DNA of 45,082 bases from Bacilli bacterium (GCA_028703035.1 JAQVNR010000002.1:1-45082), one strand, 5' to 3'. Shown: positions 3,817 to 45,082, numbered from the stretch's first letter. Numbers and translations: made by a program. Notes: a model not told the origin generated them from the sequence alone.

Positions 3817-3848
3817 ATTAAAATCACCTAATTATATTATGGGTGATT

Positions 3849-4493
3849 TTATAAAGCAATATACTCTTTTATCTTTTTTTTACTTTTAGTTTCAAGTCTT
3901 GAGACTTTAACTTGACTAATACCTAAAACAGTTGCTGTTTCTGTTTGTGATAAATCCTGGAAATAACGATAATCAATTACTGATTGTTCTAGAGGCTCTA
4001 AAGTTTCTATTGAGTCATTTACTAATATTTTATCATCGACATTATCTTCTACTTTAATAAAGTCTATTAATTCAGATTCTCCTAGACTTTCGAATTCATA
4101 GTCAAGGCTTAACATTGATTCAGTTAATAGTAAAACATCAGTTGCTATAGTCTCATCTATTTCAGCATATAAGCATATTTCAGTTAGAGTCGGTTCTTTT
4201 TTTAGTTTTTGAATTAATTCTTCTTTAGCAAGATTAATATTTTTTAATATTTTTAAATAATATTTATTTAATTTAATATCTCGACTTTTATTAGTAAGTT
4301 CATACATTTCCCCAAATATATATTTATAGGAAAAACTCATAAAGTTTACCCCAAGTGTTTCATCAAATTTTCTACTTGCTTTTATTAAACCAATACATCC
4401 AGCTTGAAATAAATCTGATATTTCAACATTATAAAACTTTTTAGCTATTTTATATATATAATTTTCATATTGTAATATTAACTTTTCTTCCAT
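3849..4493 (-). CDS. sigF: Sporulation sigma factor, SigF-like (sigma-70 family, short)
   Basis: Regions 2-4 are recognisable (LFQAGCIGLIKA...; C-terminal HTH TETATVLGISQVKVSRLE). Synteny spoIIAA - sigma - spoVA matches B. subtilis. Only 214 aa. Confidence 0.65.
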   Translation of the reverse strand: MEEKLILQYENYIYKIAKKFYNVEISDLFQAGCIGLIKASRKFDETLGVNFMSFSYKYIFGEMYELTNKSRDIKLNKYYLKILKNINLAKEELIQKLKKEPTLTEICLYAEIDETIATDVLLLTESMLSLDYEFESLGESELIDFIKVEDNVDDKILVNDSIETLEPLEQSVIDYRYFQDLSQTETATVLGISQVKVSRLETKSKKKIKEYIAL

Positions 4494-4494
4494 G

Positions 4495-4812
4495 TTACAT
4501 ATTTATTAGCGATAGAGCTGCTAGCTCATTTTCCACTATTTTAAATTTATTATTTAAAATAAGTTTTGTATTACAAATAAGACCTTCACCGTGATTTAGT
4601 CTAGCAGCTTCTATGCCTCTTTCTAATGATTCTTTTCCATAATTATCTATTACTGTAAGTGCTCCTAAGTTGTAAACAATATATTTAATACCATGTTTAA
4701 TAATAACTGGTATTAAGTATTCATTTAAACTTTTAACTGTCTCTTTAGTTAGATTACCTTTTAATCTTATAAAAAGTACTCCTTTTCTAAATTCCATATT
4801 TATTTTTAACAT
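4495..4812 (-). CDS. spoIIAA: STAS-domain anti-sigma-factor antagonist, SpoIIAA-like
   Basis: Gapless alignment from memory to B. subtilis SpoIIAA (VLCIRLTGELD...IVLNLEDLSFMDSSGLG versus VLFIRLKGNLT...IVYNLGALTVIDNYGKE). Its stop lies 1 nt before the sigF ATG. Confidence 0.65.
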   Translation of the reverse strand: MLKINMEFRKGVLFIRLKGNLTKETVKSLNEYLIPVIIKHGIKYIVYNLGALTVIDNYGKESLERGIEAARLNHGEGLICNTKLILNNKFKIVENELAALSLINM

Positions 4813-8142: not shown

Positions 8143-9420
8143 TTAATCTTTTAAACAGCCAATAGGCACAACAAAGATTCCATCTTCTGTTGTATAAGCT
8201 GTGTCTCCACCAGTAATAACCATATAAAAATCAGGCTCTTTAACTAGGATTTTCTCTTTGTTTTTTTCTTCTATTAATCTCCGTACTTCCCTAAGCTTAT
8301 CTAATCCTTGGTCTATTTGACTGCTTCCTAGTTTAGTTTGAATTAAACCAAATTTACCATTATTAAAGTTAATAACATGATCGCATTCTAAACCAAATCT
8401 ATCTCTATAATGTCTTACATGACCGCCGATTTTATTAGTGTAAACACTTAAGTCACGGTTAACTAAATTTTCAAAAAGGAAACCGAATGTATTTGGATCC
8501 AGCGCTAGCTCCTTAGGAGATATTTCAAGAGTAGCGGTTGCTAGAGACGGATCTACAAAACTTTTTTTAGATGAAGTTCTAATGCTTGTTTTTGACCTTA
8601 AATTTGGATTCCAAGCTTCTATTTCTTCTATTACATATAATCTTTTTAAAGTATTTATATAATCTAAAACTGTTTGTTTGCTTACTTCACCATAACTTTT
8701 AGATACATCTTCTAATATAGCTTGATTTGATTCTATCGTAGATATGTTTCTTGCATAAGATTTTAAGATATGACGAGCTAGAATTGGATTTCTTGATACA
8801 CCATCTATGTTTGATATATCTGACTCTAACAGTACCTTAACATAATCTTTTGCAATCTCTAATGCTACTTCTTTTGACTTAGAAATAGCCCCAGGCCAAC
8901 CACCCCGACAAGTTAAATATGCTAGTTCTTGATAATCTATATTAGATTTTTGACCTCTAACTCTAATACTGCCTTGGGCTATATCTTTAAGAGAGATACT
9001 CCCATTTGAATCTCCTGATTCAAATAAAGTCATCGGTTTCATATCAACAAATGAAAATCTGCCGATGCCGGTATGAAGTGTTTTATCTTTTAGTGGTGTA
9101 GCGGATCCTGTTAAAATATATAACCCAACATCATTTTTTTCATCAATATAATGTCTAACTGCATTCCATATTTTAGGAAGCATTTGCCATTCATCAATTA
9201 AACGAGGTTTATCTCCATCCAATAATAAAGAAATATCATTTTCAGCTATTTGTTTGTTTTTTTCAAGTGTCTCAAAATTTTGTAAATCAAGAACACTTTT
9301 AGATACCTGTTTAGCGCTTGTTGTTTTACCACACCATTTAGGCCCTCTAATTACTACTCCGCCAGCTACTTTTAGTTTTAATTCAATTATTTCATCGATT
9401 ATCCTTTTTTTATATTTCAT
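8143..9420 (-). CDS. AAA-family ATPase with DUF4143-type C-terminal region
   Basis: Walker A GPKWCGKTT and Walker B-like LIDEWQ. Overall architecture matches the AAA_14/DUF4143 proteins. A paralog, broken by a stop codon, is at 37215..38435. Confidence 0.6.
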   Translation of the reverse strand: MKYKKRIIDEIIELKLKVAGGVVIRGPKWCGKTTSAKQVSKSVLDLQNFETLEKNKQIAENDISLLLDGDKPRLIDEWQMLPKIWNAVRHYIDEKNDVGLYILTGSATPLKDKTLHTGIGRFSFVDMKPMTLFESGDSNGSISLKDIAQGSIRVRGQKSNIDYQELAYLTCRGGWPGAISKSKEVALEIAKDYVKVLLESDISNIDGVSRNPILARHILKSYARNISTIESNQAILEDVSKSYGEVSKQTVLDYINTLKRLYVIEEIEAWNPNLRSKTSIRTSSKKSFVDPSLATATLEISPKELALDPNTFGFLFENLVNRDLSVYTNKIGGHVRHYRDRFGLECDHVINFNNGKFGLIQTKLGSSQIDQGLDKLREVRRLIEEKNKEKILVKEPDFYMVITGGDTAYTTEDGIFVVPIGCLKD

Positions 9421-13981: not shown

Positions 13982-15595
13982 CTATTTTATTTTAGAATAT
14001 AATTCAAACATTGGTAATATTACTGCCATAACAATTCCTCCAACAACGACAGCTAAAAATATTATCATTGCCGGTTCAATAAAACTTTTCATACTATTAA
14101 TAATACTCTTATGACTCCCTTGATAATAACTAGCAACTCTAGCCATCATGTCTGCAAGTTCTCCAGTTGATTCTCCTGTAACTATCATGTAATATGCTAC
14201 ATCTGGGACAGCCCAGTGATTTTTAAATGAATCACTAATTTTATCACCCTTAGCAATATTATCTATTGTCTTAATCATTATTTCTTTATATATTTCATTA
14301 TTAGTAATATTAGTAAGTAAACTAATACTTTCAGTTATAAATACTTGACTTTTTAAAAGTGAAGAGAATGTTTTAGCAAAAATACTCATCTCTTTATATA
14401 TAATAATCTTACCAATTAAAGGTAATTTCATTAAAACTTTTTGCAACATATATCTAAAAGCTTTAATTTTTTTATAAAAAATCATTATAATTACACTAAA
14501 AATAAACATAATTAATAATATATAAGTTATATTAGAAGTTAAAAAATCACTTGAATTAATAATTAATAAAGTAAATGGATTAATTTCAGCACCAGCTGAT
14601 TCATAAACTCCTTCAAACTTTGGAATAACAAAAATTAAGATAAAAACAACAACTGCTATTGAAAACACCATTATTATTGTAGGATAACTCATCGCACTAA
14701 TCATTTGTTTTCTAGTTTGTTCTACTTCTTCATAATAATTAGCCATTTCATCTAAAGTTTCCTCAAGTTCACCTGTTGCCTCTGCTGCTCTAATCATATT
14801 AATTAAAAGCTGAGGAAAAACATTATGTTGTTTTTCTAGAGCCGAAGAAAAAGCTTCACCTAGAGTTAGATTATAAATAATTGAATCAAAAATCCTTTTC
14901 TTACTAGCCTCTTTACTCATCTGTTTACTTAGAATTCGCATTGAATCCGTTAAAGGAATACCTGACTTAATATAAGTAGATAATTGAGTAAGCCAAAATA
15001 TTAAATCTTTATTTTTAAATTTACCGGAATTAAAAGATGTCGGTCCATATAAAAATTCAATCATTTTGGAAGTTTCTATTTTTAATACTCGATAGTTTTC
15101 ATTTTCTAAATAAGTATAAACTTCTACTTTAGAATAGGCAATAAAGGTATTAACTTCTTTTTTTCCATCGCTATTAATCGCAGTATATCTATATGTAAGC
15201 GGTTTATCACTTCTACTTACATCATCTTGAAGTGAGCTAATTAAAAAAGTTCTTTCTCTTTCTTCTTTTTCTTTTTTCTTTTTAACAAAAAATAAATTAT
15301 TATAAAAATTAGTGAATTTTGATTCCTTTGGTGGTAGCTTTTCTTCAACCTCTTCATCTTGCTCTTCATCAATTTTTAAACTTACTGATTCATTAGGGGC
15401 AATATCTTCAATATTAAGTTTTCTATTTTCCTGTTTTTGATATATTTTAAATATATTATCACCTATAATTTTAAAGAATATTCTAAAAGGAGATATTATA
15501 CCATATGAAACATAGTAACAACCTAAAAAGAAATACATTAATATTAAAAAAGGAAGCTTTAAAATAGTTATAAAGATTTTGTTTATTTTCTTCAT
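13982..15595 (-). CDS. pilC: Type II secretion/type IV pilus platform protein (GspF/PilC family) with N-terminal extension
   Basis: The C-terminal ~350 aa have the duplicated GspF architecture (...AAEATGELEETLDEMANYY... and ...TGESTGELADMMARVASYY...). The first ~180 aa are an extra TM segment plus a charged region. Confidence 0.75.
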   Translation of the reverse strand: MKKINKIFITILKLPFLILMYFFLGCYYVSYGIISPFRIFFKIIGDNIFKIYQKQENRKLNIEDIAPNESVSLKIDEEQDEEVEEKLPPKESKFTNFYNNLFFVKKKKEKEERERTFLISSLQDDVSRSDKPLTYRYTAINSDGKKEVNTFIAYSKVEVYTYLENENYRVLKIETSKMIEFLYGPTSFNSGKFKNKDLIFWLTQLSTYIKSGIPLTDSMRILSKQMSKEASKKRIFDSIIYNLTLGEAFSSALEKQHNVFPQLLINMIRAAEATGELEETLDEMANYYEEVEQTRKQMISAMSYPTIIMVFSIAVVVFILIFVIPKFEGVYESAGAEINPFTLLIINSSDFLTSNITYILLIMFIFSVIIMIFYKKIKAFRYMLQKVLMKLPLIGKIIIYKEMSIFAKTFSSLLKSQVFITESISLLTNITNNEIYKEIMIKTIDNIAKGDKISDSFKNHWAVPDVAYYMIVTGESTGELADMMARVASYYQGSHKSIINSMKSFIEPAMIIFLAVVVGGIVMAVILPMFELYSKIK

Positions 15596-15703: not shown

Positions 15704-16020
15704 TTATAAATCGCTGTTTATAAATTCTTCATAACTGCCTATTTCTTTAAAGGTCAAATAATACTCGCCATCTCTTTTTTTAAATAAAACGGAATCAATT
15801 CCTACTCACTGTCGTAGTACTTTATGTAATGCTCGCCATGCTCTAAGACCCCGGGGGAACCTACTATGAAGAGTATCGACTTCCGCTTATCGTATTAACG
15901 AGGCTCAATTACTTCACACTTTCGTATTACGGCTCGCATTCTTTCTTGCCTATGCTTAAACCTTATCTCACGACTTCGGCTCCAAGGCTAGATACTGACG
16001 TTTGGCTACTCTTTTGCTTT
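15704..16020 (-). pseudogene. ORF-free, locally GC-richer segment with broken reading frames (unidentified gene remnant)
   Basis: No ORF of 60 aa or more on either strand. The minus strand reads ...GIDSVLFKKRDGEYYLTFKEIGSYEEFINSDL* to a stop at 15704-15706. Upstream coding-like pieces sit in other frames. Identity unknown. Confidence 0.3.
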
Positions 16021-16045
16021 TTTTATTTGATCTAAATTTTTCATG

Positions 16046-17062
16046 TTATACCTTAATTATTTCTTCGTTCAATTTATACTTTCTTCCCTTGTTCTCACCA
16101 ATAGGAATTAATACATTTAATTTCATAAACTTGCCAAAATATTTTCTTATATTTACTTTACTTTTATTTAAAAGAGTAACTGCTGCATCAGAATCTATAA
16201 ACTCATTTTTACTAAAATGAATAACTAAAGCACTTAGTACTTCTTTTTCAGTTTTAGTTAGTTCTTTTAAATATTCTTCTTTAATCTTAATTAACGAATT
16301 ATTTGTATCAAACTTTTCTATAGTTTGAAGTATCATATCTAACATAAATTCTATAAATACTGTTGAACTAGCATCTTTTTCTGCTTTACTTAATGCATCA
16401 TAATATGCTTTTTGATTTTCATATACTAATGTTTCGATTGGTAAATATTCAAATATATTATTATACTTACAAAGAATTAATGATTGCCATAGCCTTCCTA
16501 TTCTTCCATTACCATCATTAAATGGGTGAATGAATTCTATTTCAAAGTGAATAACTGATGATTTAATTAATGGATTTAAATCACTATCTTTAGCCCAATT
16601 AAATAAGTCTTCTATTAGTTTTGGAACATATTCTGGTCTTGCTCCCATATGGATTACTTCTTTTCCATTAAATACTCCAACATCACCACTTCTAAACTTA
16701 CCACTTTCACTTATTAAATCAGTTGTTAAAACTTTATGAGCATTTAAAAATGATTCTATTTTATATGGGTCATAATTGATAATATTCGTATATGCTTCAT
16801 AAGCATTCTTAACTTCATTAATTTCATTTTGAGGAGCTAAAACTGTTTTACCATTTATAATACTAATAACTTCTTCTTCACTTAAACTATTAGCTTCAAT
16901 AGCGCATGATGAATTAACTGATTTAATCTTACTCGACTTTCTTAAAAATAAATCTTTTTTTCGATCAACATTTATTTCTAAACGAGTTAGTTTTTCAGTT
17001 ATAGTTGTTACTAAATTTAAAATGTTCTCATTTATTTCAAATGGTGGTTTATTCATAATCAT
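16046..17062 (-). CDS. Fic-family protein (AMPylase-type) with C-terminal winged-helix-like region
   Basis: Canonical Fic motif HPFNDGNGRIGR (HxFx[D/E]GNGRxxR). Confidence 0.85.
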   Translation of the reverse strand: MIMNKPPFEINENILNLVTTITEKLTRLEINVDRKKDLFLRKSSKIKSVNSSCAIEANSLSEEEVISIINGKTVLAPQNEINEVKNAYEAYTNIINYDPYKIESFLNAHKVLTTDLISESGKFRSGDVGVFNGKEVIHMGARPEYVPKLIEDLFNWAKDSDLNPLIKSSVIHFEIEFIHPFNDGNGRIGRLWQSLILCKYNNIFEYLPIETLVYENQKAYYDALSKAEKDASSTVFIEFMLDMILQTIEKFDTNNSLIKIKEEYLKELTKTEKEVLSALVIHFSKNEFIDSDAAVTLLNKSKVNIRKYFGKFMKLNVLIPIGENKGRKYKLNEEIIKV

Positions 17063-17252
17063 CTAATCCTTTCAAGCTATAAGTATTATACTACCTATCA
17101 AATAAAGTATCAATATAAGTATCGATAAAAGTATTGAAATTTTTAACTTGAATTGCATTTTTTTTAATTATGTCTTGACAATCATCACTAATTTTTAATA
17201 TAAGCTTTAGTTTCATAGTAAATCAGTATATAATATTTATAAAGGAGTAACG

Positions 17253-17440
17253 ATTATAGAAATTAAAAATATTGATAATTATTTTTCTTATGAGATATTA
17301 AGAAGAGGCTACGATTATTTAAAAAGGGAAAAGTCATTAGTATTAATAAACTCGAAAATACTTATGTTGCAAAAGTTAAAGGTACTGAAAATTATGAAGT
17401 CATAATAAATCTTGATACTAATATTGTACATAATCTTTAT
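17253..17440 (+). pseudogene. Frameshifted N-terminal fragment of a SWIM-type protein
   Basis: IEIKNIDNYFSYEILRRGYDYLKxGKVISI..NTYVAKVKGTENYEVIINLD is readable only across a +1 shift. The zinc-finger part is missing. Confidence 0.35.
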
Positions 17441-17557
17441 TCCTTCCTTAAAACCCAACTTTGTCTCTTACAAATCTATCATTATCTATAACTTTTGAAG
17501 TTATAGATTTCTTTTAATTCTTCTATTATCTCGTAAACTACTGGACATACTTCAGCA

Positions 17558-17767
17558 TTACTTATTAGGAATACATTTAGCTGTATATTCTCCATATTTT
17601 TTTGTTAAATATTTACTAATTAATTCTTCATTAGATATTTTTAAACAACTTGCTATTTTATCTAATTCATCTTCAGTTATAATGCAGTTAAGTTCTTTAC
17701 AACAATTCCTACATTTTGAGCATTCATCAATTGCCATTCCCATATCATAATATTTATAATAACTCAA
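17558..17767 (-). CDS. Small Cys-cluster protein, YkgJ-like (possibly truncated)
   Basis: CSKCRNCC matches the CxxCxxCC signature of the YkgJ/UPF0153 family. At 69 aa it is shorter than typical members. Confidence 0.35.
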   Translation of the reverse strand: MSYYKYYDMGMAIDECSKCRNCCKELNCIITEDELDKIASCLKISNEELISKYLTKKYGEYTAKCIPNK

Positions 17768-18094
17768 ACAAAATAAGACGAAATAAATGAGTCATTAAAA
17801 TTCATTTTCTATCTTGGTTAAAACAGTGCCACCAACTCATTTCCTTTATAGTATCAGTAATATATTCTATATCTCTTGGTGAATAAGAGAAATCTCTTAT
17901 ATATCTTTCATAATCTCCAATCATTATAATATCAATCATATCTTTATCATATAGTTCTTTTTCTTGATCTTTAAATTCAAATAAATTTGCTTCAGAAATA
18001 AAATTAGCAATATCAGTCGCAAAATGTTTTTTTTATAAATATTTATCTATTCAACCTATTTATATTTACACATATAATTAAATAGGTGGTTCTT

Positions 18095-18337
18095 ATGAAT
18101 AATGCTAGTAATTTTTCTTTTATAGGTATTTTATCTGGTCTTAATAAAACCTTAGGTGTTGCTAAAGAGGTAATACCTTTAATTCAGCAAACAAAACCGC
18201 TTATTAATAACGTCAGAACTGCGTATTCTTTAATTAAAGATGTTAACTTGCAAAAGACTTTGCCGGAAGTAATACCTAAAAAAGAAGTTGAAAAAACTAT
18301 TGTTAAATCAAGCAATAGTCCTCAGTTCTTTGTATAA
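18095..18337 (+). CDS. Small VrrA/YqfQ-like protein
   Basis: ATG 18095 follows AGGTGG. The segment LNKTLGVAKEVIPLIQQTKPLINNVRTAYSLIKD resembles the conserved C-terminal part of B. subtilis YqfQ as I recall it. Confidence 0.4.
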   Translation: MNNASNFSFIGILSGLNKTLGVAKEVIPLIQQTKPLINNVRTAYSLIKDVNLQKTLPEVIPKKEVEKTIVKSSNSPQFFV

Positions 18338-19677
18338 AACTCTACTAAATTTAAAAATTCTCTTTTTCGGAAGTTTAGTTCTGTTTCAGTTTTAGCCTCA
18401 AATCTTAAAGTAATATAAGAACTAGTATTACTTCCTCTTATAAGAGCAAAGCCATCTTCATAATTAACTCTTACTCCATCAATTGTTAAAACATCACTAT
18501 ACTTATTAAGCGCATATTCTTTTATTTTATCAACTATTAACCACTTATCTTCTTCAGTAGTATTAACTTTTATTTCTGGAGTACTATAATATTTTTCAAA
18601 ATGTTCATATAAATCAGAGCATTTTTTATTTGTTTCATTTAAGATGTTAAGTAGTCTAATACTTGCATATATTCCATCATCATAACCATCAAAGTCATCT
18701 CTGAAAAAAACATGACCAGAGTACTCTCCTCCAAGAAAAGCATTTCTATTGATCATTTCATTCTCAATATAGGCAGAGCCATTTTTAATCATAATAGCTT
18801 CGCCACCTATTTTATTTATTTCCTTAGCAAGACCTTTAGAACACTTTACATCAATTAAGACTTTTTTATTTTCAAGTTTGGGTATAATATTATCAGCATA
18901 TATACCAATTAATGTATCTGTTGAAACAATACTTCCATTGTTATCAATAACTCCTAAACGATCTCCGTCCCCATCAAAAGCAAGACCTAAATCCGCTTTT
19001 TTTTCTTTAACAACTTTAATAAGTTCTTCTAAGTTCACGGGATCATTTGGATCTGGATTATGGACTGGAAATGTACCATCACTTTCACTATTTAAATAAA
19101 CAACATTATTAAATAACCGATTAAAGATATCTTTAATAACAATTGATGGAGTCCCACTACCTGCATCAATAACAATGTTTAAATTAGAATTTACTTTAGC
19201 TTTATTTATTAACATATTAATATATTCTTTTTGTAAATTATTAAAATTTTTGGCACCCAATCCTTCACTATACTCACCCTTTTTTATTAAATCATAAAAA
19301 ATATTAAGCTCATTATGTTCAAGATGAGAAAAATTTTTACCAAATATTTTAAATCCATTGTGATTTGGCGGATTATGACTTGCAGTAATCATAATGCCAT
19401 ATGTTACATTTAAGTACCTAGCTGAGAAGTTAAACATTGGCGTAGTACAAAGTCCAATATCAACAACATTAATACCAGTACTAATTATCCCTTCAATAAG
19501 TTTTTGATTAAGTGATAAACTACTTAATCGATTATCATGACCAATTAAACAGGTAGCTTCCTCTTTGTTTAAAATATAAGTTCCGAAAGCTTTTCCAATA
19601 ATAATACTTAAGTCTTCATTTATTTGATTAGGATATTCTCCTCTAATATCATTTTCTCTTAAAACTGTATAATCCAT
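18322..19677 (-). CDS. Phosphomannomutase/phosphoglucomutase-family phosphohexomutase
   Basis: Active-site TASHNP, Mg-binding FDGDGDR and sugar-binding GGEYSGH. The N-terminus LRENDIRG is PMM/PGM-like rather than GlmM-like. Confidence 0.75.
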   Translation of the reverse strand: MDYTVLRENDIRGEYPNQINEDLSIIIGKAFGTYILNKEEATCLIGHDNRLSSLSLNQKLIEGIISTGINVVDIGLCTTPMFNFSARYLNVTYGIMITASHNPPNHNGFKIFGKNFSHLEHNELNIFYDLIKKGEYSEGLGAKNFNNLQKEYINMLINKAKVNSNLNIVIDAGSGTPSIVIKDIFNRLFNNVVYLNSESDGTFPVHNPDPNDPVNLEELIKVVKEKKADLGLAFDGDGDRLGVIDNNGSIVSTDTLIGIYADNIIPKLENKKVLIDVKCSKGLAKEINKIGGEAIMIKNGSAYIENEMINRNAFLGGEYSGHVFFRDDFDGYDDGIYASIRLLNILNETNKKCSDLYEHFEKYYSTPEIKVNTTEEDKWLIVDKIKEYALNKYSDVLTIDGVRVNYEDGFALIRGSNTSSYITLRFEAKTETELNFRKREFLNLVEFYTKN

Positions 19678-37214: not shown

Positions 37215-38435
37215 TTAAAACTCATCATTCATTAAAAAATCTATTGCATTAAGATGCTTTATTCCATTTCTAGTATAGTCTTCTTTATCTAAGGATATTA
37301 CATATTTTTCATGATTATCATTTATGACATTATAAGCACCAAATTCTCTTTCTATTGTTTTTTCGTTATTAGCTAGCTTATAAGAAACTTGAATATATTT
37401 TAATTCTTTGTTTTTTATGACAACAAAATCAACTTCATCTCTTTTTATTTTACCTATATATACTTCATACCCCTTTGCTATTAAATCATTATAAATCAAA
37501 TTCTCTAAGCTAGTAGAATAATTCTCGATCTTTAGATTACTTTTAATTTTTTTAACTCCTAAATCAGAAACATAATACTTATTTAATGTTTTAAGAACAT
37601 TTTTACCATCAACATCATATCTATACACTTTATTAAGTAAAAAGGTTGAACATAAAGCATCTAAATAACTATATAAAGTTGAATTTGATATTTTTATATT
37701 TTCATTTGCTAAAAATTTCATGATATTTGTAGAAGAAAATTCTTTACCTTCAATTTCTAAAAGGTACTGAAAAATTTTATTAAATGTTGTAATATCTTTT
37801 ATTCCAAGTCTTTCAACAACATCTTTTAAAACTATAGAATCATATACATTAGATATATAATTTGTTTTCATAGCGTTATCATTATAATAAAATCTTTGTG
37901 GTAAACTTCCCCACTCAAATATATCTAAAATTAAATTTTCATAATCTTCCTTAGGGGTTTTTGTTAACTCTATTATTTCTTTAAAAGTTAGTGGATTTAC
38001 TTTGAAACTGACATATCTTCCAGTCAACTCTGTTGATAATTCCGCAAATGTCATTTTACTATTAGAGCCGGTAATGAAAATACTATATCGGCCTTCTATT
38101 CTCAAAGAATTAATTGCTTTCTCAAAGTCGATAACTTTTTGAACTTCATCTAAAAATATATAATATACTTTTTTAGTCTTTGTTAATTTTTATATATATG
38201 TATCTAAAGACTTAGCATCAGTTATATTGCTGTAATCTAGTGATTCAAAATTTATATAAATTATTTGTTCATCATTTATTCCTTGTTCTTTTAATTCTTC
38301 AATTATTTGTGTTAAAATAACTGATTTTCCAGATCTTCTTAAACCATAAATTATTTTGATTAATAATGTATCTTTATAAAATCCTCTGATTTTTTTTAAA
38401 TATAACTCTCTTTTTATCATAAAGTAACCTTCCAA
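37215..38435 (-). pseudogene. AAA/DUF4143-family ATPase gene interrupted by a single in-frame TAA
   Basis: ORFs 38190..38435 (Walker A GLRRSGKSV) and 37215..38105 are in the same frame. Reading through the TAA at 38190-38192 gives ...DTYI*KLTKTKKVYYIFLDEVQ (Walker B). Confidence 0.75.
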
Positions 38436-38588: not shown

Positions 38589-39107
38589 CTACTTGAAACA
38601 AAAAAAGTGTCTAATTTTAGCAACTGTAAAAACAATATAATCAGAGTTTTTTATGGCTACATTTTTACACCCAGCTTTTCCACCAACTGTCATAGCCGAA
38701 ATAAACGCTCCAACTAAAACTGAAATAATGGGTAAAGATATATTTGTAACCATAACTATACTAGTAGTTAGAACTGCTCCTAATCCGCCACTAAGAATAC
38801 CAAATACATCGCCAAACACATCAAGACATAAATTGGCAACTTGGCCATTATTTTTAAGTAGCCAAATTGCTTCTTTAGCACCTTTAATTTTTTTAGAGTT
38901 CATTGCATGAAAAGTTGATTCTTTACTTGTAAGAACACTTGTCCCAATCATATCAAACGTTATTCCCAAAGATATAACAATCAGAAGAAGTATCCCAATA
39001 ATAATTGGATTTGCATTATATGTTATAACATTGGCAACTCCACTAAAAATAATTGATAATAAAAAAGTCAATAAAAAAACCTTATATATCCAGTTATTTT
39101 TTTTCAA
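38589..39107 (-). CDS. Small polytopic membrane protein (tentatively CNNM/DUF21-like TM domain)
   Basis: 172 aa, about 4 TM helices. The family assignment is only a weak recollection. Confidence 0.4.
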   Translation of the reverse strand: MKKNNWIYKVFLLTFLLSIIFSGVANVITYNANPIIIGILLLIVISLGITFDMIGTSVLTSKESTFHAMNSKKIKGAKEAIWLLKNNGQVANLCLDVFGDVFGILSGGLGAVLTTSIVMVTNISLPIISVLVGAFISAMTVGGKAGCKNVAIKNSDYIVFTVAKIRHFFCFK

Positions 39108-39730
39108 ATTAATAACCTCCTTATAAAGTTTTTTTGAAAAGTCATGGCTTATTATAAATTAATTTTACGGCTTTGGTCGAGTTGAATTTCTCTTATTTTT
39201 ATCCGATTTCGGTTACCCTCAGGCGATTTCTCTTTAAAAAAACAAACTATTAGTTACCTTATTAGCGACTCGATTGCCACATAGTCCGCACTACAATCTT
39301 TATAACAAATACACGCTAGAGATTTTCTCTGACACAACTAACCTATTCTTATTCGCTTTTGCAAGTACAATTTCATAATTTTTATTCATTATCTTTTCAT
39401 AATCAAATTAATTCCGAGTACCCACTCACGACATGAAGTTAAATTTTTTTAGCGACGTAGCTAGAGGGTGTTCGGCTGTATGCCATTACAGCTTTCCCTA
39501 AAGCTTTAAATTATATATTCACCCTAACTTGGGCAGATAAAGCAAATATATAAAGTGTCTAATGCTTTCAATTAATGGATTTTTAGCCCCATCTTCAAAT
39601 AGTGTTTGTGACTAGCATAATGCCCCATGACAAGAATTATAGCAAAAAATAGTGATTTTGTCTAGTATGAAATGCTTCATACTACAATATTATATGCAAG
39701 CAGTTTAAAATTTAGTATATTTGTTTTCCC

Positions 39731-39760
39731 TTGATAAACACAGTATGGGTGTGCTATAAT
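39731..39760 (+). promoter_or_regulatory. Sigma-A promoter heading the tRNA-Trp locus
   Basis: TTGATA (39731-39736), 18-nt spacer ending TGC, TATAAT (39755-39760). Confidence 0.55.
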
Positions 39761-39784
39761 TTATTTGCTTGAAAAAGCAGTCAA

Positions 39785-39821
39785 AGGGGTATGGTCTAAT
39801 GGCATGATGACGGTCTCCAAA
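39785..39821 (+). pseudogene. Decayed 5' half of tRNA-Trp (remnant 1)
   Basis: AGGGGTATGGTCTAATGGCATGATGACGGTCTCCAAA aligns with tRNA positions 1-37. Similarity stops after the anticodon loop, and there is no 3' half. Confidence 0.7.
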
Positions 39822-39918
39822 TTAGGAAGTACCATATTATAGATTAAATAAATATATATTTATTTAAGTAAGAAAATAAGGAATTTTTAATTAAAGAGTG
39901 CATCTATAAGTTAATTAT

Positions 39919-39955
39919 AGGGGCATAGTTAAATGGTATAATAATGGTCTCCAAA
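39919..39955 (+). pseudogene. Decayed 5' half of tRNA-Trp (remnant 2)
   Basis: AGGGGCATAGTTAAATGGTATAATAATGGTCTCCAAA has the same end point as remnant 1. Confidence 0.7.
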
Positions 39956-40067
39956 TTATATCACTAGGTAGAATAAAAGATATACTATTTATATAAATAG
40001 TATAAGAGTTCAAAGCCTTTAAAATAAAGGAATTGCAAGAATATTTAGAGAATTAATTTTTAGTTAT

Positions 40068-40141
40068 AGGGGTATAGTTCAATGGTAGAATAACGGTCTC
40101 CAAAACCGCTGATGCGAGTTCAATTCTTGCTACCCCTGCCA
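40068..40141 (+). tRNA. tRNA-Trp (anticodon CCA), CCA-encoded
   Basis: Folds by hand. Acceptor AGGGGTA/TACCCCT, D arm GTTC-AATGGTA-GAAT, anticodon loop CTCCAAA, T arm GCGAG-TTCAATT-CTTGC, discriminator G plus CCA. Confidence 0.9.
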
Positions 40142-40334
40142 TAATGTCAATGAAAGCTAGGTAGTTCCTAGCTTTTTTCAATGTTATATTGGGTAGTAGC
40201 TTTTGTCCATAGACCACCATTCCCCTAGCCGAGTCCATCCACTAGGTCTATGAACAAAACTCCACTTTGAATATCTTGCGGTTTGCTATTAATTTTCCTG
40301 CCTATTTATCAAAATTGAAAGGAGAGATTAAATT

Positions 40335-41384
40335 ATGGCAAGTTCTATTAGTCAAAACGCTATTAACGAATTGACAAACTTTTTAACCAATTTTGCTACA
40401 CCAGAATTGGAAAACCGCAAGAAGATAGAAAATCTATCTTTTGATACTGCGAAGTCTTACTTTTTTGAAAACATGAAAGAAAGGAGGCTGGCGGAAGAAA
40501 CTTTTAGCTTTTATAATTCGCAACTAAGATCATTTGAGAAATATCTTATTCTGATAAAGAAGAAAAATGCACTTAACGAATTAACCGAAAGTGAAATTAA
40601 GTATTATTTGAATAATAAGTACTCTAAGCATAATGTCTACACTCAAAATTGCCACATTAGGGCAATTCGTGCATTTTTCAATTACTTAGAAAAAGATGGT
40701 TATATAACCGCCAACCCAGTTTCCCATTTAAAAGTTCTTAAACAACCTAAACAAAAGATAGATTATCTATCAATAGACCAGATACGAAAACTACTTACCA
40801 GTTTTGATTTACGGAAGAAAAGCGAAATCAGAAACTTATTAATTATAATGCTGCTTTTAGATACTGGAGTTCGTATTAAAGAATTATGTAATATAAAAAT
40901 TGAAGATATTGATTTCGCTAATCGTAGTATTTATGTTTATGCTACTAAGACTCATACTTTTCGTACTGTCTATTATTCAAAAGAAACTGAAGCGATAGTA
41001 AATATTTATCGTAATGAAATTTTAAGGTCTAAAGAAAATGGACCACTGCTTTTAAAGTTTCACGCATATTTAGATATTCCATTGGATGAAGCATTACCAA
41101 AAGAAAGAGCTCAAAACTGGATAAATAAAAAAGGTAAAAAGCTATTCGGAAAAGATTTTAGGCTTCATCCACATAAATTTAGACACACTTTTGCTACTCA
41201 TTATATAATAAATGGCGGTGATCCGTTTTCTTTAAAAGATTTATTAGGCCATACTAACATTGAAACAACTAACATCTATGTAGATATGACACAAAAAGAC
41301 CTTAAAATTAAACACAATGAACATGGAATATTTGCTTCTGTTTCTAATGTGGAGCAAAAAACAGGAGATAATTATGAAGATTAA
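40335..41384 (+). CDS. Tyrosine recombinase/phage-type integrase
   Basis: LLLDTGVRIKEL (Arg I), HKFRHTFAT (HxxR) and LLGHTNIETTNIYV (His, Tyr). Located 194 nt downstream of the tRNA. Confidence 0.85.
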   Translation: MASSISQNAINELTNFLTNFATPELENRKKIENLSFDTAKSYFFENMKERRLAEETFSFYNSQLRSFEKYLILIKKKNALNELTESEIKYYLNNKYSKHNVYTQNCHIRAIRAFFNYLEKDGYITANPVSHLKVLKQPKQKIDYLSIDQIRKLLTSFDLRKKSEIRNLLIIMLLLDTGVRIKELCNIKIEDIDFANRSIYVYATKTHTFRTVYYSKETEAIVNIYRNEILRSKENGPLLLKFHAYLDIPLDEALPKERAQNWINKKGKKLFGKDFRLHPHKFRHTFATHYIINGGDPFSLKDLLGHTNIETTNIYVDMTQKDLKIKHNEHGIFASVSNVEQKTGDNYED

Positions 41385-41562
41385 AGCCACTAAAAGAAGG
41401 ATGACAATTTGCAGTGCCGATACAAATAAATCATTATTAATTATAAAAGGAAAGTGGTTTCGTAATTGCGGCTTTAATCCCGGAGATATGGTCGAATTAT
41501 CTACCACAAAATCTGGTAAATTAATAATTACTAATAAAGGTAGCAAATATCATCAAAATTGA
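41374..41562 (+). CDS. SymE/SpoVT-AbrB-like small protein (SymE-family toxin-like)
   Basis: LLIIKGKWFRNCGFNPGDMVELSTTKSGKLIIT parallels E. coli SymE [31 protein letters not shown]. ATG 41374 is preceded by AGGAG and overlaps the integrase stop. Confidence 0.55.
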   Translation: MKIKATKRRMTICSADTNKSLLIIKGKWFRNCGFNPGDMVELSTTKSGKLIITNKGSKYHQN

Positions 41563-41594
41563 GAAAGCAGAATTTAAAATAATATAAACCAAAG

Positions 41595-41648
41595 AAAAAA
41601 ACAAAAAGGTTTTTGCTCTCCAGAAGCAAGAAATATTTTTGTTTTTTT
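41595..41648. terminator. Putative bidirectional terminator (A-tract/T-tract long hairpin with inner TTGCT...AGCAA stem)
   Basis: aaaaaaacaaaaa...ttgct-ctccaga-agcaa...tttttgttttttt. Confidence 0.4.
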
Positions 41649-41722
41649 AATTAAATACTAAGTGATAATTCTGTTACTCTATTTATTATTTTGTGGCAAA
41701 TAAAATTCTCCTGTTTTTTTGG

Positions 41723-41752
41723 AGAATTGAACTCGCATCAGCGGTTTTGGAG
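41723..41752 (-). repeat. Perfect 30-bp inverted copy of tRNA-Trp positions 40098-40127 (anticodon loop to T-loop)
   Basis: agaattgaactcgcatcagcggttttggag is the exact reverse complement of ctccaaaaccgctgatgcgagttcaattct. The flanking bases mismatch on both sides. Confidence 0.9.
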
Positions 41753-41921
41753 CGTAAGCCTCGCGCTATTTTATTTTGTTAAAAAGTGCTACAATCCCTT
41801 TAATTTTGAGGGTTTGCTTATTTAATTTTATTTTCTAAAAAGGTGGAATAATCCCACTTATTTAGAATTATCCCACCAAAAACCCACTTTTATTATAAAT
41901 TTAATGGAAGAGCAAGGATAA

Positions 41922-42131
41922 TTATCCTAAATTATTATTTGTGCTTGGATCAGGATTTGAAACAGGAGTTTCTTTTCCCTTGATAACTCTTATATGGTAA
42001 TTTTCATAATTTCCTTTTTTGATTTCTTTTACAAAATCAGAAGCTTTCATTATGTTTTTATTGTAATTATCTCTAAAAAGTTCATTTCTACCCTTAGAAC
42101 CTTCTTTAATTACACTAACTCGTTTTGCCAT
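41922..42131 (-). CDS. Small DUF3892-like protein
   Basis: 69 aa. GGAGG RBS. The C-terminal ...VSNPDPSTNNNLG resembles the ...D....NNL tail I recall for DUF3892. Confidence 0.4.
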   Translation of the reverse strand: MAKRVSVIKEGSKGRNELFRDNYNKNIMKASDFVKEIKKGNYENYHIRVIKGKETPVSNPDPSTNNNLG

Positions 42132-42379: not shown

Positions 42380-43195
42380 CTATTTTTTTAAAGCATTTAA
42401 ATTACCTTTATGCACTTCTAAAAATACTCTTTCAAGTTCTTTATAAATGATATTAGATAATTTATCACTTTCTAAAACTTCAAGAATTCTAACACTGCCA
42501 TATAAAGAAATATATTTTGTGATATAAGTATAAATATTATGATTGTTTTCTCCCGTTTCGCACTTTTTAAAAGTTTCATGATATTTTTCATTTTTATAAT
42601 ATTTGTCGAACAATTTTTTTTCAGCCTTAATTGCACTTATTACTATATGTCTATTATTACTTCTCCATGTTAGATTTCTAATTCTTTCTATTTTTTCAAA
42701 AACAAATCTTGTCAGCTCGTACTTATCTTCTCTTGATTCATCAATTGTAAATTCTGTCCAAAAATAACTTCTTGAGTGAGGGCTGAAAAACAAAGATCTT
42801 CTCTTACCTCTTGTAAAAATCCACGTACCTGCAAAAGTTGTTTCCTTTTTTAAAGGCATTGATTGTATTGTAGCTCTATAACACTTTTCTAAGTTTATCC
42901 AAACCCAAAATCTTTCATCTGTTAATACATATCTGGGTAATTGCTTTAACGATTCATACAATATAATCGCATTTTCCGTTTCAACCTTTGAATAATCACC
43001 AGTAACATCAACTTTTAATTGAAAGTTTATGATTTTGTTTTTTCTCGCTTCAAAAATTTTACCGGAAATCATTTTTTGTAACCACTTGGAATCAAGAGGG
43101 TTCTGTCTTATGAATTCAGTTGCTTTATTATGGTTTTCATGTAAAGAATTAACTGTTTCGTCAGTAGCGAAAAAAACATTTATACTATCTTCCAT
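42380..43195 (-). CDS. Hypothetical protein, third gene of three-ORF operon
   Basis: 271 aa. Its start is 1 nt after the stop of the preceding ORF. Trp-rich segment ERFWVWINLEK and basic TRGKRRSLFFSPHSRSYFW. No catalytic motif recognised. Confidence 0.6.
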   Translation of the reverse strand: MEDSINVFFATDETVNSLHENHNKATEFIRQNPLDSKWLQKMISGKIFEARKNKIINFQLKVDVTGDYSKVETENAIILYESLKQLPRYVLTDERFWVWINLEKCYRATIQSMPLKKETTFAGTWIFTRGKRRSLFFSPHSRSYFWTEFTIDESREDKYELTRFVFEKIERIRNLTWRSNNRHIVISAIKAEKKLFDKYYKNEKYHETFKKCETGENNHNIYTYITKYISLYGSVRILEVLESDKLSNIIYKELERVFLEVHKGNLNALKK

Positions 43196-43196
43196 C

Positions 43197-44111
43197 TTAT
43201 TCCTCCTCCATTATTTCTTCTCTATTTTCAGTTACAATATTTTTAAAATCAGTAATAGCTTTTGTTACACAGTTATTAATTATTTTTTGAGAAAATGAAA
43301 GTATATCTAATTGTAAAAAGGAACTTTGCTCTAATTCTTTTCCGTACAAATTACTATAAGCTTTTTGGATGGCACCAAACCATATATATTGTTCTCTTAT
43401 TTCTTCTAATGTTCTATCTTTCATTTCTGTCTCTCTTTGAATATTATTTAAACAAATACTCAAGGCAGGAATGACTATTATAGAAAAAAATATATTCATA
43501 AAATTATCATGATATTTTAATTTGTCATAGAAATTAAACTCTTTTTCTGGCAAAGTTATTCTTATTTTTCTTTCCTCTGCAACCACTTTCATTGTGTCCA
43601 GTTTTTCATCCAAACTTTTAATGACTAAAAAAATTGAAGAGACCTTCTTGTCAACCGAATCATCATATTCTACATTAAAAACAAAACCATCATCAATTGC
43701 TAATATATTTGATTCTTCAAAAGAAAATTTATAACCATTATAATCTTCCAATAAATCATAGTTCGTATAATCTTCTATGTTTTTATTTGAATACACCAAG
43801 CTAGAAATTTCAACTCGACCATTTAAATTTTTTAAAGGGATAACGATATCTTTTGGTTCAAACGAAATTTTTTCTATGTGTTTATAGATTGTTGATGAAC
43901 ACTCCACTATAACAACTGCATTTAAAGTGTCATTTAGGATCATATTTTTTAAATCACCATTGTTTGTTTCAATGTGTACGTTTTTCAAAATATAATTATC
44001 CTTTGTTTCTTCATCAATATATTCCAAAGAATAATTTGAACTTTTATAACAGTTATAATTTTCAGCATTGTTCAAAATCGGATATGGAAATAATCGCTTA
44101 CCTATTTGCAT
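43197..44111 (-). CDS. Hypothetical protein, second gene of three-ORF operon
   Basis: 304 aa. N-terminus MQIGKRLFPYPIL. Hydrophobic helix NIFFSIIVIPALSICL. Overlaps the upstream ORF by 14 nt. Confidence 0.6.
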   Translation of the reverse strand: MQIGKRLFPYPILNNAENYNCYKSSNYSLEYIDEETKDNYILKNVHIETNNGDLKNMILNDTLNAVVIVECSSTIYKHIEKISFEPKDIVIPLKNLNGRVEISSLVYSNKNIEDYTNYDLLEDYNGYKFSFEESNILAIDDGFVFNVEYDDSVDKKVSSIFLVIKSLDEKLDTMKVVAEERKIRITLPEKEFNFYDKLKYHDNFMNIFFSIIVIPALSICLNNIQRETEMKDRTLEEIREQYIWFGAIQKAYSNLYGKELEQSSFLQLDILSFSQKIINNCVTKAITDFKNIVTENREEIMEEE

Positions 44112-44814
44112 ACATTTTCACCTCACAAGCATAAAAATCTAATAGATCAGTATCTAAATCAAAGATGTACTTTTTATTTCTTTCGATTTTAAATCCCCTT
44201 ATCACATTATTTGAAATTTTATAGTCGATATTATTTATAGTACATTTTGATATATTTGGAATATATTTGTTGCCATTATTATCTAAATAGAATAATTCTA
44301 AGTCACAGTTGGTTTCATCATAAATCGAATTAAAAATAATCAAATACTTACCTTTAGATTTGTCGGGCACTAAAATTCTATATTTTATACCACTTAACTG
44401 CACTTTTTTCATTATGTCTTTTTCGCCATCTGATGAATATCCAGTCGATTTGTCTGCTTCATGAAATTCGCCATCATTACTGTTATTAGTTCCTTCTGGC
44501 ATGATTCCTTCTTCGTTATCTTCAATAAAATCACCAACATCAGGAGATAGAGAATTATTCCCTTCTTGTGAATCTTCTCCCAATTTATTCTTAAGCTCGA
44601 CTTTCCTTTTTGAGTTTATTTTAGGTTTTTCTTCAGTATTTTTATCAGTTAGATCGGTTGAGGCTTCACCAAGTTCCTGATCCGGCAAATACTCACCAAT
44701 TTGGATATCTGGTACTATGCATAATATATACTCAATTGGGAGCACAGCTTCTAATGATTGCATATATATCGGCACCAGTTTCAATATGAGTAGAGGAGTT
44801 AAAGCTCCCTTCAA
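44098..44814 (-). CDS. Hypothetical protein, first gene of three-ORF operon (start uncertain, possibly 5'-truncated)
   Basis: 238 aa. About 100 aa of D/E/N/S/K-rich low-complexity sequence are followed by a compact C-terminal domain (MKKVQLSGIKYRILVPDK...). An alternative ATG lies at 44763. The extreme 5' end overlaps the antisense methyltransferase remnant. Confidence 0.5.
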   Translation of the reverse strand: MKGALTPLLILKLVPIYMQSLEAVLPIEYILCIVPDIQIGEYLPDQELGEASTDLTDKNTEEKPKINSKRKVELKNKLGEDSQEGNNSLSPDVGDFIEDNEEGIMPEGTNNSNDGEFHEADKSTGYSSDGEKDIMKKVQLSGIKYRILVPDKSKGKYLIIFNSIYDETNCDLELFYLDNNGNKYIPNISKCTINNIDYKISNNVIRGFKIERNKKYIFDLDTDLLDFYACEVKMYANR

Positions 44815-44963
44815 ATCTTATGAAGGAAGAAAATATAAAGACAAACGATGGTAAACAAATGAAAGATGTTTGGGAGTCTTCGTTGACCAAACCGAGTGAA
44901 AAGAAACATGGCAAACATCCAACTCAAAAACCCGTGTTTTTACTTGAAAGAATTATGATATAA
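44681..44963 (+). pseudogene. Internal fragment of an N6/N4 DNA methyltransferase, frameshifted and truncated
   Basis: 44790-44963 reads ...DGKQMKDVWESSLTKPSEKKHGKHPTQKPVFLLERIMI*. This carries the HPTQKP...L.ERI motif that normally precedes the DPFxGSGTT SAM motif, which is missing here. Upstream, ...FNMSRGVKAPFKSYEGRKYKDK is in another frame. Confidence 0.55.
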
Positions 44964-44972
44964 GAACTCAAA

Positions 44973-45082
44973 ACATCCAACCTGACCACCCAACCTCAAA
45001 AATTTCCCCAAAAACATCTAACCTGACCACTCACGAATGCTGACATCTAACTCGACCACTCGCGGGGCTATAACATCTAACC
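44973..45082 (+). repeat. Array of four direct copies of a ~19-nt motif ACATC(C/T)AAC(C/T)(T/C)GACCAC(C/T)C, cut by the window end
   Basis: Copies at 44973-44991, 45014-45032, 45043-45061 and 45073-45082 (truncated). Spacing is 41/29/30 nt. The array starts 10 nt after the truncated methyltransferase reading frame ends. Confidence 0.8.

Follow-up and report, generated by a model that had tools for sequence, protein, structure and literature searches.

The stretch analysed here, hereafter the window, is 45,082 nt of DNA from a Bacilli bacterium (GCA_028703035.1, JAQVNR010000002.1:1-45082), and the locus under study lies at 39731-41752. There, an intact tRNA-Trp gene is preceded by two copies of its 5′ half and followed by a tyrosine integrase gene, a small overlapping open reading frame (ORF) and an inverted 30-nt copy of part of the tRNA. 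All these features, listed in an earlier reading of this DNA (the original prediction), were found again and recur in two independent metagenome contigs, L003 and L004, that reproduce the region, inverted 30-mer included, at 99.99% and 100% identity. Since both match it base for base, the arrangement is not an assembly accident of the window.

We compared the locus with about 40 related loci (designated L001 and so on), obtained by exact-protein look-ups and by a profile scan of species-representative genomes. We propose, with a probability of about 0.7, that the window holds the tRNA-proximal end of a small island and that this island belongs to a conserved family inserting in the anticodon loop of tRNA-Trp. 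The features of the locus are listed below; the core is the 7-nt anticodon loop CTCCAAA.

39731-39760, plus strand: promoter-like site TTGATA-18-TGcTATAAT (sigma-70 type), 5′ of the first half-copy
39785-39821, plus strand: 5′ half "a" (tRNA positions 1-30) and core (39815-39821), a displaced attL-type fragment
39822-39918, plus strand: spacer La, interpreted as an earlier element's left arm by comparison with the L arms seen in relatives
39919-39955, plus strand: 5′ half "b", from another tRNA-Trp allele, and core (39949-39955)
39956-40067, plus strand: spacer Lb, left arm (L) of the resident element, conserved in L001
40068-40141, plus strand: intact tRNA-Trp(CCA), with core CTCCAAA at 40098-40104 and the left arm of the inverted repeat at 40098-40127
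40153-40178, plus strand: terminator-like hairpin and T-run after the tRNA, conserved with covariation across the family
40201-40262, plus strand: long hairpin or imperfect palindrome in the integrase leader, structure conserved
40335-41384, plus strand: Xer-type ("simple") tyrosine recombinase, 349 amino acids (Pfam Phage_integrase, 7.5e-32)
41374-41562, plus strand: SymE/AbrB-fold small protein, 62 amino acids, overlapping the integrase stop codon
41723-41752, minus strand: inverted 30-mer, made of a core (41746-41752) and tRNA positions 39-61, remnant of the family's pseudo-tRNA arm
41753-41900, no strand assigned: probable X′ arm (cargo-side attachment, or att, arm), starting cgtaagcct and holding terminator-like hairpins, extent uncertain

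The tRNA-Trp gene, the upstream 5′ halves and the integrase module

The gene at 40068-40141 (Rfam tRNA, 65 bits) is the sole tRNA-Trp(CCA) called by ARAGORN on the window, with no second tRNA-Trp within these 45 kb. A degenerate 37-nt pattern made of the tRNA 5′ half and the anticodon loop has three matches in the window, all on the plus strand (39785-39821, 39919-39955 and 40068-40104), and none was obtained in 100 shuffles. The two upstream copies are identical to the tRNA gene at 30 and 33 of 37 positions, respectively, and both stop at the last base of the anticodon loop. They had been described as decayed and unable to fold, which does not hold. Copy a carries a compensatory D-stem change at 12:23 (T-A to C-G) and copy b another at 13:22 (C-G to A-T), and either one, once joined to a matching 3′ half, is called as a tRNA-Trp by ARAGORN. 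In L001, the closest relative (integrase 96% identical; 92% nucleotide identity over 1.6 kb), the island carries at its far end a 3′ half that pairs with the acceptor and anticodon stems of 5′b. The two form a cloverleaf of −19.8 kcal/mol that is called as tRNA-Trp, while 5′b folds poorly with the resident 3′ half (3′c; −13.7 kcal/mol). Each half-copy is thus the intact half of another tRNA-Trp allele, probably displaced as elements with a tRNA of their own inserted one after another.

The layout of L001, 5′b-core-L-tRNA(c)...X-core-3′b, reads as a host tRNA(b) split at the anticodon loop by an element that brought a complete tRNA(c). The window shows one layer more: promoter-5′a-core-La-5′b-core-Lb-tRNA(c). 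Contrary to what had been supposed, the elements do not appear to bring only a 5′ half; they would bring a whole tRNA, composed of the 5′ half of the pseudo-tRNA arm described below and of their own 3′ half. The idea of a repeated arrival of surrogate tRNAs is borne out by the stacked 5′ halves, but the deletions invoked with it are not needed, since spacers of about 100 nt are the usual L between the core and the element's own tRNA (L001, L012, L020, L029, L030). Left-hand units of this kind are found in L012, L020, L029, L030, L031 and L036, and a solo 5′half-core-L unit stands before the tRNA of L165, a species representative without a family integrase after it. Half "a" is probably the host's original tRNA-Trp 5′ half, and the site at 39731-39760, which matches 11 of 12 positions and has the upstream TG (promoter-like matches as a class not being enriched in this AT-rich DNA), is probably the original host tRNA-Trp promoter. 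The resident tRNA-Trp, for its part, is most likely wholly element-borne.

Unequal inversion was considered as the sole source of the two upstream units and rejected: it predicts identical units, and La and Lb, like 5′a, 5′b and 5′c, have diverged, with compensatory changes.

Each L spacer contains a perfect 24-bp palindrome (39844-39867 in La and 39981-40004 in Lb) located 22-25 nt from the core. These palindromes are candidate binding sites for the small AbrB-like protein or for a host factor. Palindromes also stand at the equivalent place in the L arms of L001, L008 and L020, and the X arms of L029 and L030 have palindromes of 22 nt.

The integrase gene starts 193 nt after the end of the tRNA-Trp gene. 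Its product has a SAM-like N-terminal domain and a catalytic domain, the arm-binding domain being absent, and it retains all the family-invariant residues of a 34-sequence alignment (R180, H280-x-x-R283, H306 and Y315). It scores 152-160 bits against the NCBIfam XerC, XerD and XerA equivalogs, below their cut-offs of 220-335, and its closest relatives in the PDB are XerA, XerC-like and XerD proteins (1e-21 to 1e-17). It resembles the Xer dimer resolvases in type and is not a member of them. Simple tyrosine recombinases act on short symmetric sites, and the orientation of these sites sets whether integration, deletion or inversion results. The anticodon stem-loop is such a short symmetric site.

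Between the tRNA and the integrase, the terminator-like hairpin shows compensatory changes in 3/4 predicted pairs. The leader hairpin that follows has stem sequences varying by lineage and z-scores of −1.6 to −4.5 in six lineages, and it may be either a structured integrase leader or a protein-binding palindrome. Consensus RNA folding of the leader returned the tRNA terminator only, the long hairpin being shown sequence by sequence. In every lineage (L001, L008, L010, L017, L070) a stem of 12-20 bp lies between the tRNA terminator and the integrase ribosome-binding site.

The small ORF is conserved in every family locus, where it overlaps the end of the integrase gene. Its label as SymE-like stands at the level of the fold and not at that of the scores, which lie below the cut-offs of both Pfam (SymE_toxin, 9e-4, 19.7 bits against 29) and NCBIfam (PRK13605, 16.6 bits against 132). 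It also weakly matches MazE_antitoxin and carries the hairpin motif LKGKWL..GF, and some of its counterparts in relatives have precomputed PF08845 hits. These weak SymE_toxin and MazE_antitoxin matches, together with the hairpin motif, are what it shares with the SymE type I toxin and the AbrB-SpoVT fold; unlike SymE, it remains under the cut-offs and overlaps the end of a recombinase gene. The AbrB/SymE-type fold suggests DNA binding, and the overlap suggests translational coupling with the recombinase. The small protein is probably a DNA-binding accessory or directionality factor, and toxicity seems no more likely than an accessory role of this type.

A conserved inverted pseudo-tRNA arm and the islands that carry it

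The 30-mer CTCCAAAACCGCTGATGCGAGTTCAATTCT is present at 40098-40127 (plus strand) and 41723-41752 (minus strand), with 100% complementarity and 0 occurrences expected by chance. It starts where the anticodon loop starts (tRNA position 32) and stops two bases beyond the T-loop, and its outer end falls exactly at the edge of the core. The junction shared by all four tRNA pieces of the locus is thus the 7-nt loop CTCCAAA. In the inverted copy, the 3′ part of the tRNA is perfect (23/23) and the 5′ half is absent (7/30 identity); the core is fused instead to sequence starting cgtaagcct, weakly like the X ends found beside the right attachment site (attR) of L011 and L012. At the inner end of the 30-mer, and overlapping it by two bases, stands a second exact CTCCAAA (41718-41724, minus strand); read on that strand, two cores thus enclose 21 nt of the tRNA 3′ part. 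The corresponding heptamer is CTTCAAA in L001, and other lineages have no related sequence there; this second heptamer may be a coincidence.

All 25 loci that extend far enough have an inverted pseudo-tRNA downstream of the integrase and symE-like genes (int-symE). For 16 distinct pairs whose core is intact, the mismatch counts between this copy and the local tRNA are 10/480 over the 5′ half, 102/368 over positions 38-60 and 154/224 over positions 61-74; they are descriptive and not a formal test, the loci being related. The pseudo-tRNA thus appears to be under asymmetric constraint, with its 5′ half kept while its 3′ part decays. Its inner boundary stands just after the T-loop in all lineages despite differing tRNA alleles, and in L010 the identity of the arm stops 8 nt from the start of the core. 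By its position and boundaries, the 30-mer of the window reads as a truncated form of this conserved arm.

The original prediction had rightly held that simple integration does not produce an inverted copy, which we now find to be part of a pseudo-tRNA arm conserved across the family. It had also considered that the copy might be the distal att site of an island that came in by way of a tRNA-Trp in the opposite orientation, or the scar of an inversion between two islands. In favour of this, the copy is inverted and stops at the core, as expected of an att site. However, the same copy, with the same inner boundary and at the same distance after int-symE, is found in all 25 relatives examined, whose integrases share 55-96% identity and whose tRNA alleles differ, and each time it matches the local tRNA. 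It belongs to the element and is not an accident of this chromosome, and we give an origin as a one-off scar or distal att site almost no credence.

The segment could also be imagined to act as RNA, the 3′ end of the int-symE transcript carrying 30 nt of perfect antisense to tRNA-Trp or its precursor. Its place, 160 nt beyond the symE-like stop codon, is indeed within the 3′ untranslated region, and a terminator-like hairpin with a T-run comes directly after the segment (41751-41767). In relatives, however, positions 38-60 decay (28% mismatches) and the 5′ half is conserved, the opposite of what such a role predicts, and we regard it as very improbable.

In L001 the arm is complete and forms a 179-bp perfect inverted repeat (core, L, 5′ half, core, 23 nt), so that the window corresponds to L001 minus the right-hand [5′half-L-core] unit. 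An assembly artefact in L001 was considered and set aside: its inner boundary is common to the window and all relatives, and its double inverted-repeat layout recurs in long contigs. The L001 arrangement is probably real.

The integrase clade comprises about 69 proteins of at least 50% identity, after which there is a gap down to about 31% (generic XerD-like proteins). The hosts are uncultured, low-GC, small-genome Bacilli carrying labels such as Tenericutes, Mollicutes, Mycoplasmatota, Erysipelotrichaceae, Candidatus Faecimonas and Onthousia, and the sub-clade of the window includes the 1.49-Mb chromosome OW818670.1 (L008). The window itself has 27.8% GC and encodes RNase J, an Fe-only hydrogenase and OLE RNA, which points to an anaerobic member of the Bacillota as host. 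A phage origin found no support: there is no family member in IMG/VR (best match 33% identity), and PHROGs recognises the integrase only. For most family members nothing longer than a contig of 1.2-2.5 kb, typically about 1.5 kb, is known, approximately the integrase module with partial arms. It seems from this that short-read assemblies break regularly at the inverted arms, which would keep the islands out of surveys based on metagenome-assembled genomes.

A scanner for CTCCAAA cores flanked by tRNA-Trp half-sequences, combined with self-BLAST, gave a common plan. On the left are optional 5′half-core-L units, the intact tRNA-Trp, a terminator, the integrase gene and the small ORF; on the right are the inverted pseudo-tRNA, L′, an inverted core, X′, cargo, X, and a core with the tRNA 3′ half (attR). 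The intact tRNA adjoins the integrase in all relatives with that module end intact and on the contig, the tRNA core lying 224-247 nt before the gene in every such locus. One inverted repeat (IR-1, 57-198 bp) brackets the integrase module and a second (IR-2, 270-380 bp, 91-99.7% identical) brackets the cargo, both abutting cores; the two core-abutting pairs are present in L008, L012, L017, L029, L030, L034, L036 and L001. In 19 loci the direct core with 3′ half (attR) stands 5-10.8 kb further downstream. Of the complete islands seen, that of L001 is the smallest (4.6 kb). Its cargo (region 1929-4697) is a single gene whose product has a zinc-ribbon N-terminus, a multi-pass membrane region and a beta-propeller-like C-terminal part; it is flanked by a 376-bp inverted repeat, 99.7% identical, with cores as outer ends. 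In L029, a second int-symE-pseudo-tRNA module (16615-18420), 93.8% identical over 1.7 kb, lies directly behind the attR of the first island, and this locus is a tandem or nested element pair at one tRNA-Trp, the right-hand counterpart of the serial insertion proposed for the window. Full-text literature searches returned no description of the inverted pseudo-tRNA arm or of this family, which is not proof that none exists.

Insertion at the core, orientation of the module and a possible mechanism

The anticodon loop had been expected to serve as the att core, and the comparison agrees with this at every junction. One case is the polymorphism between L017 (occupied) and L196 (empty), whose flanks are 98.8% and 99.5% identical: the 5.2-kb island of L017 starts exactly at CTCCAAA, and its direct repeat is the core, the 3′ half and 3 nt. 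Among 80 species representatives anchored on the host-left DUF3048 gene, 27 have the tRNA-Trp and no family integrase in the following stretch of at least 2.5 kb. The presence/absence polymorphism with an intact empty site is shown for the family only (L017/L196); for the window's own host, 0 hits were obtained.

Relatives are found with the integrase module in both orientations. L020 and L021, which are 99.8% identical and have the same integrase, differ by the relative orientation of cargo and integrase: L021 1-3134 corresponds to L020 5056-1923 reversed, and L021 2937-4718 to L020 253-2033 forward. In L021 the cargo flank is joined to the full-tRNA arm, and the T-arm variants travel with the module. 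The arms of L021 contain two internal single-nucleotide polymorphisms that leave identical stretches of 108 and 72 nt; these are probably shorter than the assembly k-mer (the k used for L021 is not known), which makes the linkage likely unambiguous. A second case comes from host genes. In L071 the host-left Abi_2 and HtrA genes are upstream of the tRNA and co-oriented with it, as are the neighbouring amidase and Hydrolase_2 genes in L008 and L073, while in L009, L010 and L070 Abi_2 and HtrA are downstream of int-symE-pseudo-tRNA, inverted and reached through minus-strand 5′half-core-L units. The longest identical arm stretch of L010 is 97 nt, below its k of 141. One intact tRNA-Trp is kept in both L021 and L010; L009 begins after the tRNA end of the module. 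From these arrangements, the intact tRNA appears to be rebuilt from the constant 3′ part of the module and whichever 5′ half lies outside it, and the family can probably form an intact tRNA in either orientation of the module.

The window, L003 and L004, which come from different samples, all show one orientation. It had been suggested that the 1.6-kb int-symE cassette of this genome is an active switch flipping between its 30-bp arms. Some evidence goes this way, namely the perfect inverted repeat with a core in it and the integrase inside, the intact integrase with all its invariant residues and the existence of relatives in both orientations. The flipped state, however, would have 5′half-core-23 nt-junk on one side and X-core-3′half on the other; as the inverted arm is without a 5′ half (7/30), it would contain no intact tRNA-Trp at the locus, with no second tRNA-Trp in the 45 kb, and the three assemblies are in one orientation only. 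Hence a recombinase-invertible cassette is sustained at the level of the family, but we consider its active flipping here to be quite unlikely. Likewise, the idea that inversion severs the tRNA fits the window, whose arm has no 5′ half, and fails in those relatives that have the tRNA end of the module on the contig, as their arm supplies a perfect 5′ half and its upstream spacer.

The mechanism included in our preferred reading, that of a family island inserted in the anticodon loop, would be the following. Crossover by the Xer-type recombinase would take place at CTCCAAA, with the anticodon stem on either side. Three to five copies of this core, in both orientations, would divide a complete element into segments: a module M (tRNA 3′ part, terminator, integrase and symE-like genes), one or two [L + 5′ half] units, and the cargo, flanked by the 270-380-bp inverted repeat X′/X. 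As M lies between the tRNA and the inverted pseudo-tRNA, recombination of the two inverted cores would flip it, and, the pseudo-tRNA keeping a perfect 5′ half and spacer, one intact tRNA-Trp would result in either orientation. The excised circle would exist as two isomers with two alternative attP sites. Integration through X-core-3′half would give the classical product with a hybrid tRNA, and integration through X-core-L-tRNA would split the host tRNA, the element supplying a whole replacement.

The window would be the second product: 5′half(b)-core-Lb-tRNA(c)-int-symE-[23 nt of tRNA 3′ part, inverted]-core′-X′-cargo, in which the 30-mer is the pseudo-3′ part and the core, abutting the cargo arm. 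By an alternative route, an L001-like element could have lost its right-hand [5′half-L] unit by an integrase-mediated deletion between like-oriented cores. The stacked halves would stem from elements arriving one after another, each landing in the tRNA-Trp that was then intact: a would have belonged to the host tRNA and b to the tRNA of an earlier element. Were the cores at 40098-40104 and 41746-41752 to recombine, the module would end up between a truncated tRNA and X-core-3′half, and the locus would have lost its intact tRNA-Trp. As no further tRNA-Trp is in view, selection should act against this flipped state, which fits the single orientation of the three assemblies; the module of the window is probably stuck in one orientation.

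A variant of this scheme attributes the inversions to RecA-dependent homologous recombination and gene conversion, the integrase serving only for integration and excision. The near-identical arms of L001 and L020 (179-198 bp) are long enough for homologous recombination, and the 5′ half and L spacer of the arm are often 100% identical, which suggests gene conversion. On the other hand, attL, attR, the unit boundaries, the X arms and the outer end of the 30-mer all fall on the same 7-nt core, arm identity drops within a few nt after it, as seen above for L010, and the arms are merely 57-63 bp with mismatches in L008, L017 and L034. That all the junctions lie on the same 7 nt is our main argument for the integrase as the enzyme that would invert M, and we hold the RecA variant to be unlikely.

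Several points weigh against the reading of the window as one end of such an island. First, the similarity of the DNA from 41753 onwards to the X arms of relatives is weak. The island's far end is not reached, the window ending in a rearranged stretch (44698-45082) and L004 2.9 kb further, and no contig carrying the window's proteins extends the island beyond L004. The distal direct repeat is found in neither the window nor L004, the island running past both, so that the predicted X-core-3′half(b) and the 3′half(a) are unseen. The empty attB of the window's host (29 nt, that is 22 nt of 5′a and the core) gave 0 hits in genomes and metagenome contigs, as did the X-core junction of the window, GCGAGGCTTACGCTCCAAA, in metagenome contigs. 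The tRNA-Trp count, moreover, is that of the 45-kb window and not of the rest of this genome. Second, at the level of the family, the core of the pseudo-tRNA is mutated or deleted in nine loci, and the gut-clade representatives with recognisable host-left genes are all in one orientation; together these two observations indicate that inversion is neither universal nor frequent. The orientation evidence consists of metagenome contigs and not of reads, crossover at the core is deduced from the positions of junctions, and homologous recombination between the long arms of L001 and L020 could invert M. Finally, the layouts of L070, which has no left arm and no intact tRNA-Trp on its 11-kb contig, and of L074, where cargo separates the tRNA from the integrase, are not fully derivable from the model.

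In L070, the last ~14 nt of the tRNA 3′ end precede the terminator and integrase (430-480) and are joined to tttttttggaag, which resembles the right end of the integrase module; this junction was possibly made at the T-loop boundary.

Taken one step further, the family might form an undescribed "flip-flop" class of islands, a proposal that we rate somewhat below even odds. Here a Xer-type recombinase would shuffle segments between three to five anticodon-loop cores and give two isomers with two attP sites, of which one would restore the tRNA and the other would split it and substitute the element's own tRNA as the next landing pad, while a bay flanked by inverted repeats would exchange defence modules.

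Cargo, neighbouring DNA and comparison with known systems

Beyond the probable X′ arm, the window contains the following cargo features.

41922-42131, minus strand: small cargo ORF, 69 amino acids, weak DUF3892 match
42380-44814, minus strand: PDC-M33 candidate defence system (PADLOC)
42380-43195, minus strand: PDC-M33 gene C, DUF6339
43197-44111, minus strand: PDC-M33 gene B
44098-44814, minus strand: PDC-M33 gene A, truncated to the C-terminal 238 amino acids (full 641-amino-acid gene in L004)

In L004, PDC-M33 is followed by a type II methyltransferase and then by a restriction enzyme. The cargo of relatives includes type I restriction-modification systems, reverse transcriptases, Abi genes and similar functions, and L011 and L012 combine the same integrase (P0042) with distinct cargo. 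Window and L004 diverge from 44698, where PDC-M33A is cut to its last 238 codons. After this break come two inverted fragments of the downstream methyltransferase gene (44697-44741 and 44838-44956) and four copies of a motif of about 17 nt, ACATCTAACCTGACCAC (44912-45064), in DNA of 45% GC against 28% elsewhere. The stretch 44698-45082 looks like the multi-site end of a Tn7/Mu-type transposon, and L006 has a similar break.

Immediately upstream of the tRNA-Trp promoter, and divergent from it, the minus strand carries a full-length OLE (ornate large extremophilic) RNA (39128-39644, 216 bits, model positions 1-616) and, directly downstream of this RNA, a 172-amino-acid membrane protein (38589-39107) at the position expected of an OapA-like partner. 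Further away, a group II intron, partial or degenerate, is marked by an Rfam group-II-D1D4-6 match (15839-16029, minus strand, 53.7 bits); it stands just upstream of the Fic-domain gene at 16046-17062 and beside a T2SS-F/pilus-type gene (13982-15595). Two AAA_14/DUF4143 ATPase genes are also present on the minus strand (8143-9420 and 37215-38105); the second one encodes 401 amino acids in L003 and is a 296-amino-acid ORF with a TTG start in the window, which could be a start-codon or frame difference.

The accepted picture of an island is one-way, running from the tRNA through the integrase and cargo to a direct repeat. The present family adds to it a pseudo-tRNA and a second inverted repeat, from which it follows that the module can flip with the essential tRNA intact and that the element can repair or replace its target. 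It offers a concrete explanation for stacked tRNA 5′ halves, which current island finders do not seek, and explains the breaks of metagenome assemblies at the family loci. The hosts are uncultured gut or anaerobic small-genome Bacilli for which genetic tools are lacking, and the islands are a source of candidate defence systems such as PDC-M33 and type II restriction-modification. Moreover, a compact recombinase that would perform integration, deletion and inversion on a 7-nt core in a defined stem-loop is a testable, and possibly useful, system.

The element is a tRNA-gene (tDNA) island in the classical sense, and an anticodon-loop sublocation class of such islands was reportedly defined by Williams in 2002. 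Classical tDNA islands with tyrosine integrases are catalogued in Islander (PMC4383910). The family shares with them a tyrosine recombinase beside an intact tRNA, a crossover in the anticodon loop, a displaced 3′ fragment as direct repeat at the far end (in the relatives), occupied and empty sites, tandem arrays and defence cargo. It differs from them by the internal inverted pseudo-tRNA and the second, cargo-flanking inverted repeat, by an integrase module found in both orientations, and by a recombinase that is of the short Xer type, with no arm-binding domain. Moreover, in some insertions, that of the window included, the gene is not restored by a 3′ fragment: the host 5′ half stays upstream and the element carries in a full replacement tRNA.

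A further likeness concerns the cis-mobilizable elements (CIMEs) that accrete next to integrative and conjugative elements (ICEs) in Streptococcus. In both cases, short att-bounded units without recombination genes are stacked by an integrase-bearing element at the same target. The units of the family differ by their size of about 140 bp, by their composition, a spacer with a tRNA 5′ half, and by their position 5′ of the tRNA.

In terms of function, the closest analogies seem to be the FLP flip-flop of the 2-micron plasmid and the shufflons. In the yeast 2-micron plasmid, long inverted repeats carry the target site (FRT) of the FLP recombinase, and inversion between them produces two isomers. 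The family likewise has two segments parted by site-bearing inverted repeats, with the recombinase encoded in one of them, but it is a bacterial integrative island and not a replicating plasmid, and its target is the anticodon stem-loop of a tRNA. It has no evident replication function, hence no role in amplification, and is known here from contigs and not from circles. Shufflons and other invertible systems driven by tyrosine recombinases include Rci of R64, FimB/FimE and RecV. There too, short core copies in both orientations partition invertible segments under a recombinase encoded at the locus. However, the family switches neither a variable protein C-terminus nor a promoter; it preserves a tRNA gene in both states, made of a constant 3′ part and either of two 5′ halves, and deletions between like-oriented cores also seem to occur in it.

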